The position numbers were made by a program, and so were the translations under genes. Shown piece after piece: positions 27,670-46,290 of a stretch of 64,000 nt of DNA. Below the pieces are notes generated by a model. The model was given only the letters and a program-made list of their open reading frames with translations, was not told where the DNA came from and ran no database searches. Position 1 is the first letter of the stretch; each line of letters opens with the position of its first letter. Source of the DNA: Escherichia phage Turkey5. The DNA lies in the sequence record PQ471516.1; one strand, 5' to 3'.

Positions 27670-27735
27670 GCTTTTTTGTATTGACAAACGCAAAAGTACC
27701 AAGTACAATACAGATGTATATTAATAAAAGGAACA
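27670..27735 (+). promoter_or_regulatory. Intra-array promoter (TTGACA N17 TACAAT) after weak hairpin + T-run
   Basis: GGGCTTTTTTG followed by TATTGACAAACGCAAAAGTACCAAGTACAATAC, then RBS AAGGAA before the ORF at 27740. Confidence 0.5.
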
Positions 27736-27739
27736 TACC

Positions 27740-28261
27740 ATGAAACCCGTAATCGATTATGAAGTACCACAAACGTTCGAAGAGTGCAATGCGTACATCG
27801 ACAAGGTGCTTTGCATTTTCAAGGCATTCATTGAAGAGGACATTCCAACCTTTGATTACGAACATCCCACCCAAGGGTACAAAAACATGTACACGAGGAA
27901 TAACATGAATGGTATTATTCCTCACATCACGAGTTCAACGTTTTGGTACACAGATAGTTCAAATGGTTCAAAAGATTTCCTTGTAAGCGATTTGCATTTA
28001 AAAGAACCTTCATCAGTACCTATGCTGTTTGAGCCTATTCAATCAGGAGAAGAGTATTTTCAGTACAGCACCTTGTATACAGCATTTGAGTTATTTTGTA
28101 TTCAGATGTACGCAAGAACAAATGCTTACATTAAAGATAATCCAATCAATTTCAAAAGTGCGAAGATTGTCCATCCTGTATTTGCTGATTTATATGATTC
28201 AGTGTATTCAGGTAAAAAGCCAAAGTACACCCACACCGCGTATAGAGCGTTTCGTCCTTAA
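27740..28261 (+). CDS. Family B protein (173 aa)
   Basis: Motif GEEYFQYSTLYT. Confidence 0.65.
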   Translation: MKPVIDYEVPQTFEECNAYIDKVLCIFKAFIEEDIPTFDYEHPTQGYKNMYTRNNMNGIIPHITSSTFWYTDSSNGSKDFLVSDLHLKEPSSVPMLFEPIQSGEEYFQYSTLYTAFELFCIQMYARTNAYIKDNPINFKSAKIVHPVFADLYDSVYSGKKPKYTHTAYRAFRP

Positions 28262-28270
28262 GGAGCTATA

Positions 28271-28882
28271 ATGAGTTACATGAGTTCACACAGATTATTA
28301 GATGTATTAAAGAAGCATCTTGTTTTCCTTCAGGACAAGTTACGTTCCTTTTCAGAGATATTCCCTGATGGTAGTAAGTTGGTAGTTCCTTTTCGTGCAC
28401 CCAATGTGAATGACCAGTTCGTAGTTCACATTAGTACAGATAATATTTCGTTGCGTATTATCAATTCAGATTTAGATTTATTCGGTGTAAGATTCAATAC
28501 AAAACAAACGGTATCGAGTTCGTCCCTAAACAAATGGGATTTTTGTATTGCTCACCCTAATAAAGCTGAAGAGATTTGGATACAAATCAGTGCAGATGGT
28601 CATGAGAGATCGCATTTTGCGTATTATCCTAAAACAGATAAGTTTCCAGAATCAGTGTATTACAAGAGAACAGATTATGAAACATTGGATTCATTTTTGT
28701 TCCAGCAGCAGATGTTTGAAGGAGTAAGAAATCAAGATGAAATCCAGAAGGACATTGATACAATCCTTGATATTCAAAGTTATCTTGATGAAGACATGTA
28801 CGTATATCATGGTAATTCAGTTATTTTTGAAAATGTATTACCGTCCTTTATCAATACATTACAAGATATTAAGGTGTTTTAA
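28271..28882 (+). CDS. Family B-related protein (203 aa), degenerate motif
   Basis: RBS AAGGAG; motif region ETLDSFLFQQQMFEG. Confidence 0.6.
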   Translation: MSYMSSHRLLDVLKKHLVFLQDKLRSFSEIFPDGSKLVVPFRAPNVNDQFVVHISTDNISLRIINSDLDLFGVRFNTKQTVSSSSLNKWDFCIAHPNKAEEIWIQISADGHERSHFAYYPKTDKFPESVYYKRTDYETLDSFLFQQQMFEGVRNQDEIQKDIDTILDIQSYLDEDMYVYHGNSVIFENVLPSFINTLQDIKVF

Positions 28883-29115
28883 TGATTTTATTCAATACAG
28901 GTCCGTGTTCCTTAGAAGTGATGTTTTCAAGAAATCGTTTATGGAATCAAAATTTCAGGGACGATACGTTGTTTCACAGGATGGTACAAACCTTCGAACA
29001 TGAGAAAGAAGAAGAATACATGCACAGAATCATGTACATAGTAGTCCTTAGTACACCTGAATATTACGAGCGTTTGAGAGAGTTCAATTCCAAGATACCA
29101 AAGGAGCCTATGTGA
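28882..29115 (+). CDS. hypothetical protein (77 aa), no family motif
   Basis: TAATG junction with upstream gene. Confidence 0.5.
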   Translation: MILFNTGPCSLEVMFSRNRLWNQNFRDDTLFHRMVQTFEHEKEEEYMHRIMYIVVLSTPEYYERLREFNSKIPKEPM

Positions 29116-29504
29116 AACCAGTACCGTTAAGATATCAATTTTGTGCTTACGCAGTGCAAATGTACAGTTCAGAGGGTATATGTCAATACGAGTTTGATAT
29201 TGAGTCACAGGAGACGAATGAAGAGGTGTACACGGTACGTTACCTTTACGGGAAGTACACCTTCGCTATCAAAGACAAGCACAGAAACATATTCCCTGTT
29301 CCTAATTTTGTGCACGAACCGGAGTTGGAGTTCCAGTACAGCACCTTAAGAGATGACATTCCTGTGCACAAGAAGATGCAGGATGTGCTGATAAAGTTCG
29401 TAGAATGTGTTATGGCGGTTGACAATTACCCGAATATCCTGTACATTACCTTTGATAGTTACGAAATCTTAGAAGATATGTTCGAGGGATGGGAATTATG
29501 TTAA
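29112..29504 (+). CDS. Family B protein (130 aa)
   Basis: GTG start after RBS AAGGAG; motif ELEFQYSTLRDD. Confidence 0.6.
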   Translation: MKPVPLRYQFCAYAVQMYSSEGICQYEFDIESQETNEEVYTVRYLYGKYTFAIKDKHRNIFPVPNFVHEPELEFQYSTLRDDIPVHKKMQDVLIKFVECVMAVDNYPNILYITFDSYEILEDMFEGWELC

Positions 29505-44187: not shown

Positions 44188-44728
44188 TTTTCAAAATATG
44201 TACGACATGTGTAAGATTATGTCAAATTTCAGTACTAAGATTAAATCGGCTCCAGTAGCGGAAGTTCACATGTCCGACCGCTACTACACGTTCCGAGTAT
44301 CCAGTACTGGTGACAGTATTCGACTGTTCTTAAATGACCGACAGCAATTGTTTGATGTAGTCATTGTAGACCATACTACAAAGGGAAAATATGCATACAA
44401 TATGTATGCAAAAAATCGTTGGTTAGTAATTCGTAATACAATGCAACGATTACGTGCAGCTACAGATATAAACAGTACTGGTGATGATTACGATATTACT
44501 AACATTTTAGATGAATCTGTTTTTAATTTTGAAATGGATTTATCTGTTGATGATCCATTCCTGCGTGACATTTACAAGTTACATGGATGCGTGGTTCGTG
44601 GTACTAAAGATATCAAAGCTGTGTCAATTGAAGTATCCAGAATTCATGAACACAATGTGAACCTGGAATCATTGATTGATAAGATGAATACCAATTTCTT
44701 CTTTTGGAAGTGTAAGGATGAACTATGA
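44180..44728 (+). CDS. array B member without clear core motif (182 aa)
   Basis: ATG 44180 overlapping upstream stop (TAATGAATAA); same packing as neighbours. Confidence 0.5.
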   Translation: MNNFQNMYDMCKIMSNFSTKIKSAPVAEVHMSDRYYTFRVSSTGDSIRLFLNDRQQLFDVVIVDHTTKGKYAYNMYAKNRWLVIRNTMQRLRAATDINSTGDDYDITNILDESVFNFEMDLSVDDPFLRDIYKLHGCVVRGTKDIKAVSIEVSRIHEHNVNLESLIDKMNTNFFFWKCKDEL

Positions 44729-45180
44729 CACGCGATGAGTGTATCCTATTATGTAAAGTTGTAGAGAAGATCTTAAGTGATCCTTCTCTTGAAAATAGTA
44801 AAGTACTGAAAAATAAAACACGCAGGTCGTGGACTGATATTGCACTTGTAAGTGATGATATCAATGTTGGAACTTTGTGGCCTTCGAGAACATATACACT
44901 AACAAGTGCAATACACGAAGAAAGTGTAGATTATGTAGGTGAGAAAACTTTCATCCACGGTAGTAGTACTACACCAATAATGCACATCATTGATTTAGTT
45001 GATATGGATGACTTTGATTCGTTATATCTTCAGTACTCTTCGACATATAATACTGAATTAATTTATCAATTGGTTCTTATTTCGAGGATTAGTTATTTGA
45101 TTAAAAATAACAATGATTATTCTTCGCTTTCACTTACGTTCGAATTACTACCTTTTGCAGAGGAATTCTTAAATGAGTAA
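44725..45180 (+). CDS. Family B-related protein (151 aa)
   Basis: ATGA overlap; motif DSLYLQYSSTYN. Confidence 0.6.
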   Translation: MTRDECILLCKVVEKILSDPSLENSKVLKNKTRRSWTDIALVSDDINVGTLWPSRTYTLTSAIHEESVDYVGEKTFIHGSSTTPIMHIIDLVDMDDFDSLYLQYSSTYNTELIYQLVLISRISYLIKNNNDYSSLSLTFELLPFAEEFLNE

Positions 45181-45658
45181 TATCAGTGCACAAGATTACG
45201 TTAAGATTTACAATTTCATGAATAGCTTCTTTGGTCCTGAAACTAAAGAAGTACAACTAACTAAGAACTTACAGTTAGGTGTATACAGTAATACTTATGT
45301 AGGTATTAAGAATACATCAAGTACCACTGAATTTAATACAGATATGTTTCGTATTATCCGTAATACACATAATCGTGAAATTAGTACATTAACACCTAAT
45401 ACAATGATAGCTGAACCTCCGACGAAAAATATCAATGTTATCACATTCAATTCAGATAATGTCGTTGAGATTCCAGAATTTACTTCATTTGATGAATTAC
45501 AGTTTCAGTTGAGTACTCTATATAAAAATGAAAGTATTCTGACCTTCTTATCATATCTTAATAGTATTAATAATAATTATGTGGTTTATTTTGGTTCAAT
45601 CCAGTCTATTAGTATTACACAGGAATTACTTGATTATATTGATAGTATGGAGGAATAA
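45173..45658 (+). CDS. Family B protein (161 aa)
   Basis: Motif DELQFQLSTLYK. Confidence 0.6.
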   Translation: MSNISAQDYVKIYNFMNSFFGPETKEVQLTKNLQLGVYSNTYVGIKNTSSTTEFNTDMFRIIRNTHNREISTLTPNTMIAEPPTKNINVITFNSDNVVEIPEFTSFDELQFQLSTLYKNESILTFLSYLNSINNNYVVYFGSIQSISITQELLDYIDSMEE

Positions 45659-46239
45659 TGGAACTAAATTTCAGTACTTTACTAAAGTTCATTCATCCAG
45701 TACTTTGGGTACTAAAGAATAGAAAATCAGAACATGATACTGTTCAGTACAGTAATGATTACTACAGTCTATTGTGCGGGGTTTATGCTGATGGTGGTTC
45801 CATTATTATGGAGTACAAAGAAGCCAGTGCAAGGGGAACCAATCTAAGAATCGAATTACGCCTACCACTGTACGTAATTAAAAAGGATACACTACTCTTA
45901 AGGGACATTGATTCAAAAAACCGCATTCGTGCTAATATGTTTATTGCCCAGAATACTGAAGAAGAACTATCAGTAAGTGATAACACCGAAAAGACAGAGA
46001 CAGGTGCATATACTATTGACACCTTCAGTGAAGAATGGTATTTTCAAAACAGCCTTCTTCATCATTTACGCCCGTATCAGGATACAAAATCGTTATGGGA
46101 TATCTATCAAGTACTGAAATGTTGGGACGGGGGTTCTATTGATATGTTATCAGAGATGACTTCAAACTATTCCAACAGCACTATTGACACGGATGAAGTA
46201 CTGAAAAAACTATGGAGCATGGTTGCTACTATAGACTAA
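45658..46239 (+). CDS. Family B protein (193 aa)
   Basis: TAATG junction; motif SEEWYFQNSLLHH. Confidence 0.6.
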   Translation: MELNFSTLLKFIHPVLWVLKNRKSEHDTVQYSNDYYSLLCGVYADGGSIIMEYKEASARGTNLRIELRLPLYVIKKDTLLLRDIDSKNRIRANMFIAQNTEEELSVSDNTEKTETGAYTIDTFSEEWYFQNSLLHHLRPYQDTKSLWDIYQVLKCWDGGSIDMLSEMTSNYSNSTIDTDEVLKKLWSMVATID

Positions 46240-46245
46240 AAAAAC

Positions 46246-46290
46246 GAGCCGGAGTGTTGACTTCGGCTTTTTTGTTTGGTACTATATCTA
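46246..46290 (+). terminator. Terminator hairpin (GAGCCGGAG...TTCGGCT + TTTTTT) with embedded promoter TTGACT N17 TACTAT
   Basis: Imperfect stem followed by 6 T; -35 hexamer lies within the stem, -10 downstream. Confidence 0.55.

Follow-up and report, generated by a model that had tools for sequence, protein, structure and literature searches.

The stretch of Escherichia phage Turkey5 DNA analysed here (sequence record PQ471516.1; 64 kb, referred to as the window) comes from an Asteriusvirus jumbo phage and is 96.7% identical to Escherichia phage vB_EcoM_JNE01 (JNE01), an Asteriusvirus of 355 kb. Asteriusviruses are Rak2-like jumbo phages, distantly related to T4. All coding in the window is on the + strand. 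About 45 small genes occupy positions 1-20 kb – mostly each with its own stereotyped promoter cassette – followed by array A (20.5-26.1 kb), with about 20 tightly packed paralogues of roughly 75 amino acids (aa) each, and by array B, in which tightly packed genes for proteins of 100-200 aa extend from about 26-27.7 kb to 50.3 kb. Array B, and the promoters, terminators and other regulatory signals within it, are the subject of this report.

Array B spans about 23 kb and contains about 50 small same-strand genes, almost all without an assigned function; the corresponding genes of JNE01 are all annotated as 'hypothetical protein'. Eleven paralogues are recognisable by BLASTP and share a C-terminal motif (E-E-x-Y-F-Q ... 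D-A-L-V-L ... F-Y), and an AlphaFold model built from their alignment has a predicted local distance difference test score of 70 and no fold match in PDB (best E = 2.6). The array B proteins have no Pfam match, their PHROGs matches are solely to families of 'unknown function', and a word-indexed homologue search with array B found relatives at least 90% identical and nothing more distant. Rfam and tRNA scans of the 64-kb window gave no match.

The genes overlap or abut, and between 27.7 and 46.3 kb there are just five non-coding gaps of at least 40 nucleotides (nt). These precede the ATG codons at 27740, 34522, 39232, 42521 and 46306 (with gene starts checked against the JNE01 annotation). An additional non-coding gap, at 30092-30294, is masked by a dubious open reading frame (ORF).

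Promoters, terminators and predicted units of array B

Every one of the five gaps contains one near-consensus sigma-70 promoter oriented with the genes, each composed of recognisable hexamers with a spacer of 16-18 bp.

P1, 27681-27709, + strand: TTGACA (27681-27686), 17-nt spacer, TACAAT (27704-27709); 31 nt before ATG 27740
P2, 34478-34505, + strand: TTGACA (34478-34483), 16-nt spacer, TGcTATAAT; 17 nt before ATG 34522
P3, 39168-39197, + strand: TTGACC (39168-39173), 18-nt spacer, TGaTATAAT
P4, 42462-42490, + strand: TTTACA (42462-42467), 17-nt spacer, TGtTATAAT; 31 nt before ATG 42521
P5, 46257-46285, + strand: TTGACT (46257-46262), 17-nt spacer, TGgTACTAT

The sites were scored with a simple sigma-70 position weight matrix (PWM), and the probability given for each gap is that of a + strand genic window of equal size scoring at least as high. 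P2 matches the consensus at all 12 hexamer positions (PWM 15.0, third in the window; P<5e-5), and P1, P3 and P4 each match at 11 of 12 (PWM 13.5, 14.4 and 14.2; P=0.0024, 0.0034 and 0.006, respectively); P5 is the weakest of the five (9/12, PWM 11.4, P=0.010). An extended -10 (TGn) is present at P2-P5 and absent from P1 in the window. The DNA upstream of the -35 hexamers reads as A- or T-rich – consisting of terminator T-tracts at some promoters and of AAAAAATAG at P3 – as judged by reading rather than by a score from an UP-element model. The -35 of P3 contains the TGA stop codon of gene 38584-39171.

Six array B sites score at least 13.4 on the + strand and none on the - strand, where dinucleotide shuffles give an expectation of 0.2 +/- 0.44 per strand. 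The five gaps hold five of the eight best + strand positions in 22.7 kb, including four of the top six, and the - strand has no site scoring at least 12.5. A loose consensus scan finds no excess of promoter-like sites (72 found, 99 expected from shuffles), and the signal is thus confined to the top-scoring sites located in gaps, to their placement and to their strand. Three further strong + strand sigma-70-like matches lie inside genes.

38039-38067, + strand: TTGACA-17-TATACT, inside gene 37744-38277; PWM 14.6, fourth in the window
40633-40661, + strand: TTGACA-17-TATATT, inside gene 40521-40916; PWM 13.4
46016-46044, + strand: TTGACA-17-TGgTATTTT

The first two make up the intragenic + strand sites scoring at least 13.4, against 0.2 expected. 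The site at 40633 is unchanged in relatives that are 97% identical, and for the site at 38039 no alignable homologue was found in other lineages from which to judge conservation. All three may be additional internal promoters.

Four of the five gaps are also associated with a stem-loop followed by a T-rich tract, and another terminator lies at the end of unit B5.

T1, 27650-27679, + strand: terminator; stem 27650-27671, GCCTGTGTC-GTAA-GATACGGGC, then a run of six T; closes the unit before it, which comprises array A and the first array-B-like genes
P2 hairpin, 34466-34498, + strand: terminator-like; ACTCCCA, 13-nt loop, TGGGAGT (34466-34492), then TTTTGTG; the -35 of P2 is in the loop
T4 (a terminator of array B, not the phage), 42430-42456, + strand: AAGACCC-TTAT-GGGTCTT, then TTTTGTGTTT; closes units B1-B3
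T5, 46246-46275, + strand: terminator; stem-loop 46246-46269, GAGCCGGAGT-GTTG-ACTTCGGCTT, then a run of six T; closes unit B4
Terminator, 50950-50970 and a run of seven T, + strand: about -14 kcal/mol; closes unit B5

T1 (RNAfold -13.9 to -15.3 kcal/mol), terminator T4 (-10.2 to -12.8 kcal/mol; stem-loop 42430-42447 with the tail TTTTTGTGTTT), T5 (-15.0 to -16.0 kcal/mol; identical in JNE01) and the terminator at 50950 all have the form of intrinsic terminators, with a stable GC-containing stem-loop directly before a U-tract (5-7 T in each). The P2 hairpin, which has 7 bp and a predicted energy of about -11 to -12 kcal/mol (-11.2 to -11.7), and which overlaps the stop codon of gene 34164-34475, has this form only weakly; its 13-nt loop exceeds the 3-8 nt limit of the terminator scan, which therefore did not list it. 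It may act as a terminator, probably a weak one.

Promoters and terminators are joined in two ways. T1-P1 and T4-P4 are arranged in tandem, with 9-14 nt separating the terminator from the -35, T1 lying directly upstream of P1. P5 is fused with T5, such that its -35 (TTGACT) is within the loop and 3′ stem of the hairpin and the T-tract forms the spacer; P2 has the same fused design with a weaker hairpin, the -35 being in the loop and the T-run in the spacer. The P3 boundary has no terminator upstream. The array can accordingly be divided as follows.

B1, 27740-34475, + strand: about 17 genes; starts at P1
B2, 34522-39171, + strand: 11 genes; starts at P2
B3, 39232-42431, + strand: 7 genes; starts at P3
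B4, 42521-46239, + strand: 7 genes; starts at P4
B5, 46306-50972, + strand: 10 genes; starts at P5 and ends at the terminator at 50950-50970 with its run of seven T

The blocks bounded by terminators number three (27.7-42.45, 42.46-46.27 and 46.28-50.97 kb). Because the terminator at P2 is weak and there is none at P3, transcripts from P1 and P2 should continue into the P3 unit as nested transcripts.

A preliminary description of this DNA had placed internal sigma70-like promoters at 27670-27735, 34478-34510, 39169-39206 and 42462-42500, a clean terminator at 42431-42451 and a terminator with an embedded promoter at 46246-46290. The promoters are recovered to within a few bases as P1-P4, the clean terminator as the terminator T4 stem-loop with its T-rich tail, and the composite element as P5, the -35 of which is inside the T5 hairpin. 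T1 lies outside the start given there, and the P2 hairpin, a hairpin at P3, the intragenic sites at 38039 and 40633, and the hidden gap at 30092-30294 with a motif at 30068 are additions to it. The description had also envisaged five or six operons. Five promoter-defined units are indeed well backed by the statistics and by conservation in three lineages (below), but they are unlikely to be clean operons and are probably nested in part; the alternative count of six could stem from a hidden sixth boundary at about 30.07-30.29 kb.

The end of unit B5 includes a previously unlisted ORF of 43 aa (50841-50972), which matches Pfam DUF7230 (E = 1e-16) and is conserved in JNE01 and in phages Ecwhy_1 and A4. 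The terminator hairpin that ends the unit (50950-50978) takes in the final six codons of this ORF together with its stop codon. An assignment of this ORF as ArfA-like was rejected, given that Pfam assigns it to DUF7230.

Conservation of the boundaries and the organisation of the array

We compared the lineage of the window and JNE01 with the 121Q-like phages Ecwhy_1 and WPEC3 and with phage A4. Array B is syntenic but diverged in Ecwhy_1/WPEC3 and A4, with protein identities of mostly 22-57%, and of about 25-35% next to the cassettes. The close relatives (JNE01 and two metagenome contigs, about 97% identical) were discarded as a test for being too similar, with just three changes, none of them in promoter hexamers.

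In both Ecwhy_1 and A4 the homologues of P3, P1 and P4 rank as the three best + strand promoter matches of the array, at the same gene junctions even though neighbouring proteins are 22-35% identical, and sites scoring at least 12.5 number six on the + strand and none on the - strand in Ecwhy_1, and ten and none in A4. Placement in non-coding DNA upstream of a gene, co-oriented with it and above chance, is a property of the promoters in these two lineages and in the window, where all five gaps are occupied. The P1 homologues, which do have TGn, are TTGACA-17-TGgTACAAT in Ecwhy_1/WPEC3 and TTGACA-17-TGtTATCAT in A4, and the P3 homologue is the top-scoring + strand array B site in Ecwhy_1 (15.4) and in A4 (16.5), located after the homologue of gene 38584. 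At P4, the -35 and extended -10 are 100% identical to Ecwhy_1, the spacer 71% and the 5′ untranslated region 37%; the A4 homologue is TTGACA-17-TGtTAGAAT and follows the same terminator.

The terminators are similarly constrained. T1 is 87% identical to its Ecwhy_1 counterpart, with flanking coding sequences at 51-55%; Ecwhy_1, WPEC3 and A4 all have this terminator, with a compensatory replacement of G-C by A-T. Terminator T4 is 100% identical to Ecwhy_1 (27/27) between coding sequences at 57-60%; in A4 its stem is kept and its loop is changed. Compensatory substitutions are seen in the stems of T1 and of T5-type terminators, and the terminator T4 stem is invariant. Overall, identity with Ecwhy_1 is 87-100% for terminators, 83-100% for hexamers, 60-71% for spacers and 51-60% for flanking coding sequences, which is the footprint expected of functioning terminators and promoters.

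P2 and P5 behave differently. P2 is identical in three relatives that are 97% identical, and has no clear counterpart in the 121Q lineage (where gene-for-gene mapping of its place is not possible); in A4 a promoter is found two genes beyond the P2 place, before the homologue of gene 35295. P5 and T5 are absent from the syntenic junction in Ecwhy_1, where the gap is just 11 nt. A4 has a T5-type cassette (AAGCCAGGGT-ATTG-ACTCTGGCTT, six T, then TATTAT) with an embedded -35, a G-C to A-T compensatory change and wobble exchanges, located before a different gene – the homologue of 42521 – and following a two-gene insertion. The sequences compared thus indicate that the array is subdivided in all of the lineages, and that the cassettes turn over. 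The A4 insertion (L011 17586-19543) lies between the T4/P4 cassette and the P5-type cassette, includes one gene annotated as 'methyl-accepting chemotaxis protein', and suggests that units newly gained by the array bring their own flanking signals with them.

We consider it likely that array B is a part of the early region that is split into five co-directional, probably overlapping sigma-70 units. Host RNA polymerase with sigma-70 would start at the five near-consensus -35/TGn/-10 promoters in the five gaps, and intrinsic terminators at 27650, 42430, 46246 and 50950 would stop most transcription, with a weaker hairpin and T-run acting at P2 and with the two kinds of signal fused at P2 and P5. 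Units B1-B3 would form one terminator-bounded block with nested starts. The statistical excess, strand bias, conservation and compensatory changes belong to the elements themselves, and from these we infer where the RNA ends would lie, how well the terminators would work, and what the timing and the translational effect would be.

It is conceivable, though in our estimation unlikely, that the array is instead expressed essentially as one long read-through transcript, with the internal promoters acting as boosters and the terminators leaky, so that the units are nested and overlap, and are distinguished by how strongly they are expressed, not by kind or timing. The lack of a terminator before P3, the weak one at P2 and the single class of promoters fit such a view, as does the existence of the P3 hairpin (see below), which implies that read-through RNA arrives at gene 39232; in phage T4, moreover, early transcripts reach downstream genes as 'delayed early' RNA (PMC2988021). 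However, three of the terminators have GC-containing stems of 7-10 bp and T-tracts that are 87-100% conserved with compensatory changes, which argues that they do terminate, and the fresh promoter directly after each terminator would be needless if read-through were efficient. That the promoter and terminator matches are chance features of AT-rich intergenic DNA is hardly credible: such DNA does easily match TATAAT and the loose scan falls below its shuffles, but the gaps hold most of the best + strand positions with nothing comparable on the - strand, and hexamers and stems are 83-100% conserved between proteins only about 25-35% identical while spacers and untranslated regions drift.

Several points count against the division into five units. 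The match of P5 to the consensus is modest, and the P2 hairpin, with its 13-nt loop, may not terminate. The intragenic sites at 38039 and 40633 mean either that starts outnumber gaps in the array or that a strong match need not be functional. P2 and P5 are lineage-specific in position, so that neither the number nor the placement of units is fixed, and the comparison draws on three independent lineages only. The literature searched contained no Asteriusvirus transcriptome or transcription map, and the 5′ and 3′ ends of the RNAs are predicted ones.

The P3 hairpin and a solitary late-type motif

The P3 boundary differs from the others in having an inverted repeat that spans the promoter and the start of the next gene.

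P3 hairpin, 39183-39236, + strand: 5′ arm 39187-39200, containing TGn and the -10 of P3; 3′ arm 39218-39231, containing the Shine-Dalgarno (SD) sequence GGAG and extending up to AUG 39232

On RNA initiated upstream, the SD and the bases up to and past the AUG are predicted to pair in a hairpin with a folding energy of -21.2 kcal/mol (z = -7.7), a stability that none of 200 shuffles attains. The start of P3 RNA, as predicted from the -10 at 39192-39197, is about 7 nt further on, at approximately 39204, and is beyond the 5′ arm; RNA beginning at this position lacks that arm and is unstructured (-3.2 kcal/mol, z = +0.65). The same contrast is found in Ecwhy_1 (-21.2 vs -3.9 kcal/mol) and A4 (-21.5 vs -2.7 kcal/mol), although the sequences of the loop and outer stem differ. 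Of all promoter-proximal genes of the window, 39232 is the one whose SD pairing changes most when read-through RNA is compared with RNA started at the promoter (0.90 vs 0.48). An RNAalifold consensus has 20 pairs, five of them compensatory (including a TG/CA to CA/TG exchange in A4), together with several G-U pairs that argue for pairing in + strand RNA rather than for symmetry of the DNA. From these folds we infer that gene 39232 would be translated only from RNA started at P3 – which would lack the 5′ arm and be open – and would be masked on RNA arriving from P1, P2 or another upstream start, by pairing of the -10 region with its SD and AUG.

Two other explanations of the repeat can be entertained. 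It could be a DNA operator with two half-sites (TGTGATATAA ... TTATATCACA), at which a phage or host repressor shuts P3 off with no RNA hairpin involved. Conservation of the repeat is highest in its two 10-nt half-sites, one of which overlaps the -10 in the classic position for an operator, and the symmetric changes in A4 maintain the symmetry of the DNA too. Nonetheless, pairing reaches past the conserved core into lineage-specific sequences and uses G-U pairs, for which the opposite strand would have A-C mismatches; the distance between the half-sites varies, at 24-28 nt; and the 3′ arm always includes the SD and always ends at or over the start codon, which fits translation control and not an operator. 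We regard this explanation as improbable. Alternatively, the hairpin could be an element for RNA processing or stability – for example an RNase III site at which a polycistronic RNA is cut – rather than a translational mask. Early RNA of phage T7 has intercistronic RNase III sites, and the P3 stem, 14-18 bp with an internal loop, lies between two cistrons of a long transcript. RNase III substrates usually have stems of about 20 bp or more, longer than this one, and a processing site would not need the -10 in its 5′ arm and the SD and AUG in its 3′ arm, both of which are kept in three lineages; we find this explanation more improbable still.

A short-query blastn search with the P3 cassette matched JNE01 alone. 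Scans of IMG/VR and metagenomes with a P3-hairpin pattern recovered the 121Q lineage and one apparently unrelated large phage contig of 198 kb (OIZT01000010.1; L004 3249-3295 / L008 1692-1737), which has TTGACA-17-TGaTATAAT and a -17.7 kcal/mol hairpin extending from the -10 to the ATG and including the SD GGAG. We do not count this contig as evidence, because the neighbouring proteins are non-homologous and the pattern itself selects for the repeat; the likeness may be convergence or a coincidence selected by the pattern.

Another feature lies within unit B1.

30068-30074, + strand: candidate late-type promoter core, gATAAATA; the sole ATAAATA on either strand of the 64-kb window
30092-30294, no strand assigned: conserved non-coding stretch of about 200 nt, with an invariant block GTCAAAAAAATTTCCGCT at 30128-30145
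Loci of the non-coding element: window 30092-30294; L002 19429-19624; L011 5166-5381; L015 17756-17887; L017 ~6549-6680; L021 ~4513-4640

ATAAATA occurs once in the window against an expectation of 37.35 +/- 6.2, and TATAAATA is absent where 11 are expected (both strands in each case); TAAATA is the most depleted hexamer in the window. Ecwhy_1, WPEC3, A4 and JNE01 likewise have one ATAAATA per early-region locus, in the same syntenic place. In a 50-kb section of JNE01 (L014), structural genes included, every one of the 15 occurrences is intergenic, co-oriented with the genes and 18-72 nt before a start codon, and this placement identifies ATAAATA as the late-promoter core of this lineage, as proposed for phages CBB and GAP32 (PMC5259590). 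The motif at 30068 is thus a copy of one that marks upstream regions in structural-gene DNA and is rare elsewhere, and from these counts the early region appears to have been purged of it.

The stretch at 30092-30294 is covered by a dubious GTG ORF (30098-30325) and is itself left without annotation in JNE01; in an alignment its conservation greatly exceeds that of the genes on either side, and no conserved ORF or Rfam match was found in it. The block GTCAAAAAAATTTCCGCT follows ATAAATA by 36-40 nt in Ecwhy_1, A4, CBB and GAP32 and by 60 nt in the lineage of the window, and is also present in Serratia phage BF, after CTAAATA; the version GTCAAAAAAATTTYCGCT is common to Asteriusvirus, the Mimasvirus-type phages CBB and GAP32, and Serratia phage BF. 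A conserved RNA structure was rejected, as the RNAalifold consensus (-11.9 kcal/mol) has unfavourable covariation within Asteriusvirus and zero pairs across genera. The element may be a late leader or a promoter-dependent DNA element.

The candidate late-type promoter at 30068, which the conserved non-coding stretch follows, probably re-transcribes part of the array late in infection. Against this, the motif is 227 nt from the next ATG, compared with 18-72 nt in the JNE01 structural region, and is about 20 nt upstream of the position in other lineages, where the window reads ATAAAGA. A broader proposal is that the array is not simply early: the late promoter would re-transcribe the array late or drive a promoter-dependent DNA function (such as a T4-style R-loop replication origin), and the P3 hairpin would be an early-only gate that silences gene 39232 on P1/P2 read-through and on late RNA. 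We offer this tentatively, as a possible but doubtful extension.

The preliminary description had further suggested that the operons might be expressed at different times. This is unproven, and the elements it listed lend it no support: all five promoters belong to one sigma-70 -35/TGn/-10 class, which in T4-like phages is that of early promoters (PMC2988021), and so give no reason to expect different times. Timing differences are plausible by way of the late-type motif at 30068 and the P3 hairpin. No middle-type promoter was found, in a search solely for the CBB-type motif TGAAACG...TATA, which gave one - strand match, at chance level.

The division of array B described here provides a conserved, sequence-based map of which genes are likely to be co-expressed, and exact coordinates for promoter and terminator parts predicted to be active with E. 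coli polymerase. It singles out gene 39232 as apparently controlled with unusual care. Absent from early DNA but for one site, and confined to positions upstream of genes in the 50 kb of JNE01, ATAAATA offers a simple rule for calling late promoters in this group of phages; the one exception, at 30068, is a specific, testable lead together with the non-coding element shared across genera.

Other signals are evident elsewhere in the window. Array A has an internal promoter, TTGACA-17-TATAGT (25037-25065), that straddles the end of gene 24790-25056 before ATG 25095 and is kept as TTGACA...TATAGT in Ecwhy_1 (L002 ~11330-11360). Between 600 and 20300 there are about 45 near-identical cassettes, each before a single small gene, composed of AAAGTACTTGCA (or TTGACA), 16-17 nt, TATAAT, TTTACATC, a 5′ hairpin GGGGAA..TTCCCC, an SD and ATG; in promoter class and layout these are unlike arrays A and B. 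The palindrome AGTACT is part of many early promoter cassettes (AAAGTACTTGCA; TAGTACTGTATAAT), yet is far more widespread. The 64 kb contain 275 copies, 190 of them inside genes; the total exceeds the expectation of a third-order Markov model 2.4-fold and an estimate from composition alone about 12-fold. CAGTACTG has 55 sites where about 8-9 are expected (110 vs 17.1 counting both strands). CGTACG, GGTACC and CTGCAG are absent, with about 11 sites of each expected (0 vs 21-22 counting both strands), which looks like restriction-site avoidance.

Relationship to known systems

The subdivision of array B is the ordinary early-region architecture of a T4-related phage, and the proposed P3 gate varies a device known from elsewhere; the lone late motif and the cross-genus element together make up the one unexplained item. 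Phage T4 early promoters have UP, -35, TGn and -10 elements (PMC2988021), and array B resembles T4-type early regions in its many small same-strand genes, near-consensus -35 and -10 hexamers, TGn at four of five promoters and upstream DNA that reads as A/T-rich; use of the host polymerase and nested read-through transcripts are expected here too, from the sequence. It departs from them in having long paralogue arrays, with up to about 17 genes per unit, in promoters that are predicted ones, and in that no AsiA/MotA-type middle motif was seen (the search covering the CBB-type TGAAACG motif only).

A further comparison is with CBB, GAP32 and PA5oct, which belong to the same wider phage group; the same three types of signal – predicted RpoD-like promoters, ATAAATA and rho-independent terminators – are on record for CBB and GAP32 (PMC5259590). 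In the Rak2-like phage CBB, the predicted RpoD-like promoters cluster where short hypothetical ORFs, presumed early, are located, and there is an ATAAATA late motif and a gp55-like sigma factor (PMC5259590); PA5oct uses host RNA polymerase, with TTGAC/TATAATA promoters at start sites seen by RNA-seq (PMC7318152). The position of ATAAATA before structural genes in CBB and GAP32 is confirmed for JNE01. The papers on these phages (PMC5259590, PMC7318152) do not describe subdivision of paralogue arrays, fused cassettes, a P3-type hairpin or purging of ATAAATA, and the array-B-like block of CBB has only about eight genes.

The array B terminators are like canonical E. coli intrinsic terminators in having a 4-nt loop on a GC-containing stem of 7-10 bp with a T-tract directly after it, and unlike them at P2 and P5, where they overlap the next promoter, with the -35 in the loop or 3′ stem and the T-tract in the spacer. 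The counterparts of the P3 hairpin are those of phage T4 genes e, soc, 49 and I-TevI, in which long early transcripts fold so that a hairpin hides the SD or AUG, whereas RNA from a promoter within the 5′ arm is open and translatable (PMC3014915). The P3 arrangement has the same anatomy – promoter core in the 5′ strand, SD and AUG in the 3′ strand, and a predicted start beyond the 5′ arm – with a large difference in predicted stability, -21 vs -3 kcal/mol. The embedded promoter in the T4 set is late (TATAAATA), resulting in late-only expression, whereas that of P3 (TTGACC-18-TGaTATAAT) is by its sequence of the sigma-70 type. The hairpin is therefore expected to work as in the phage T4 cases without being a member of the late-gated set: the gate would limit translation of gene 39232 to the period when sigma-70 is active, in the opposite temporal sense to phage T4 gene e.

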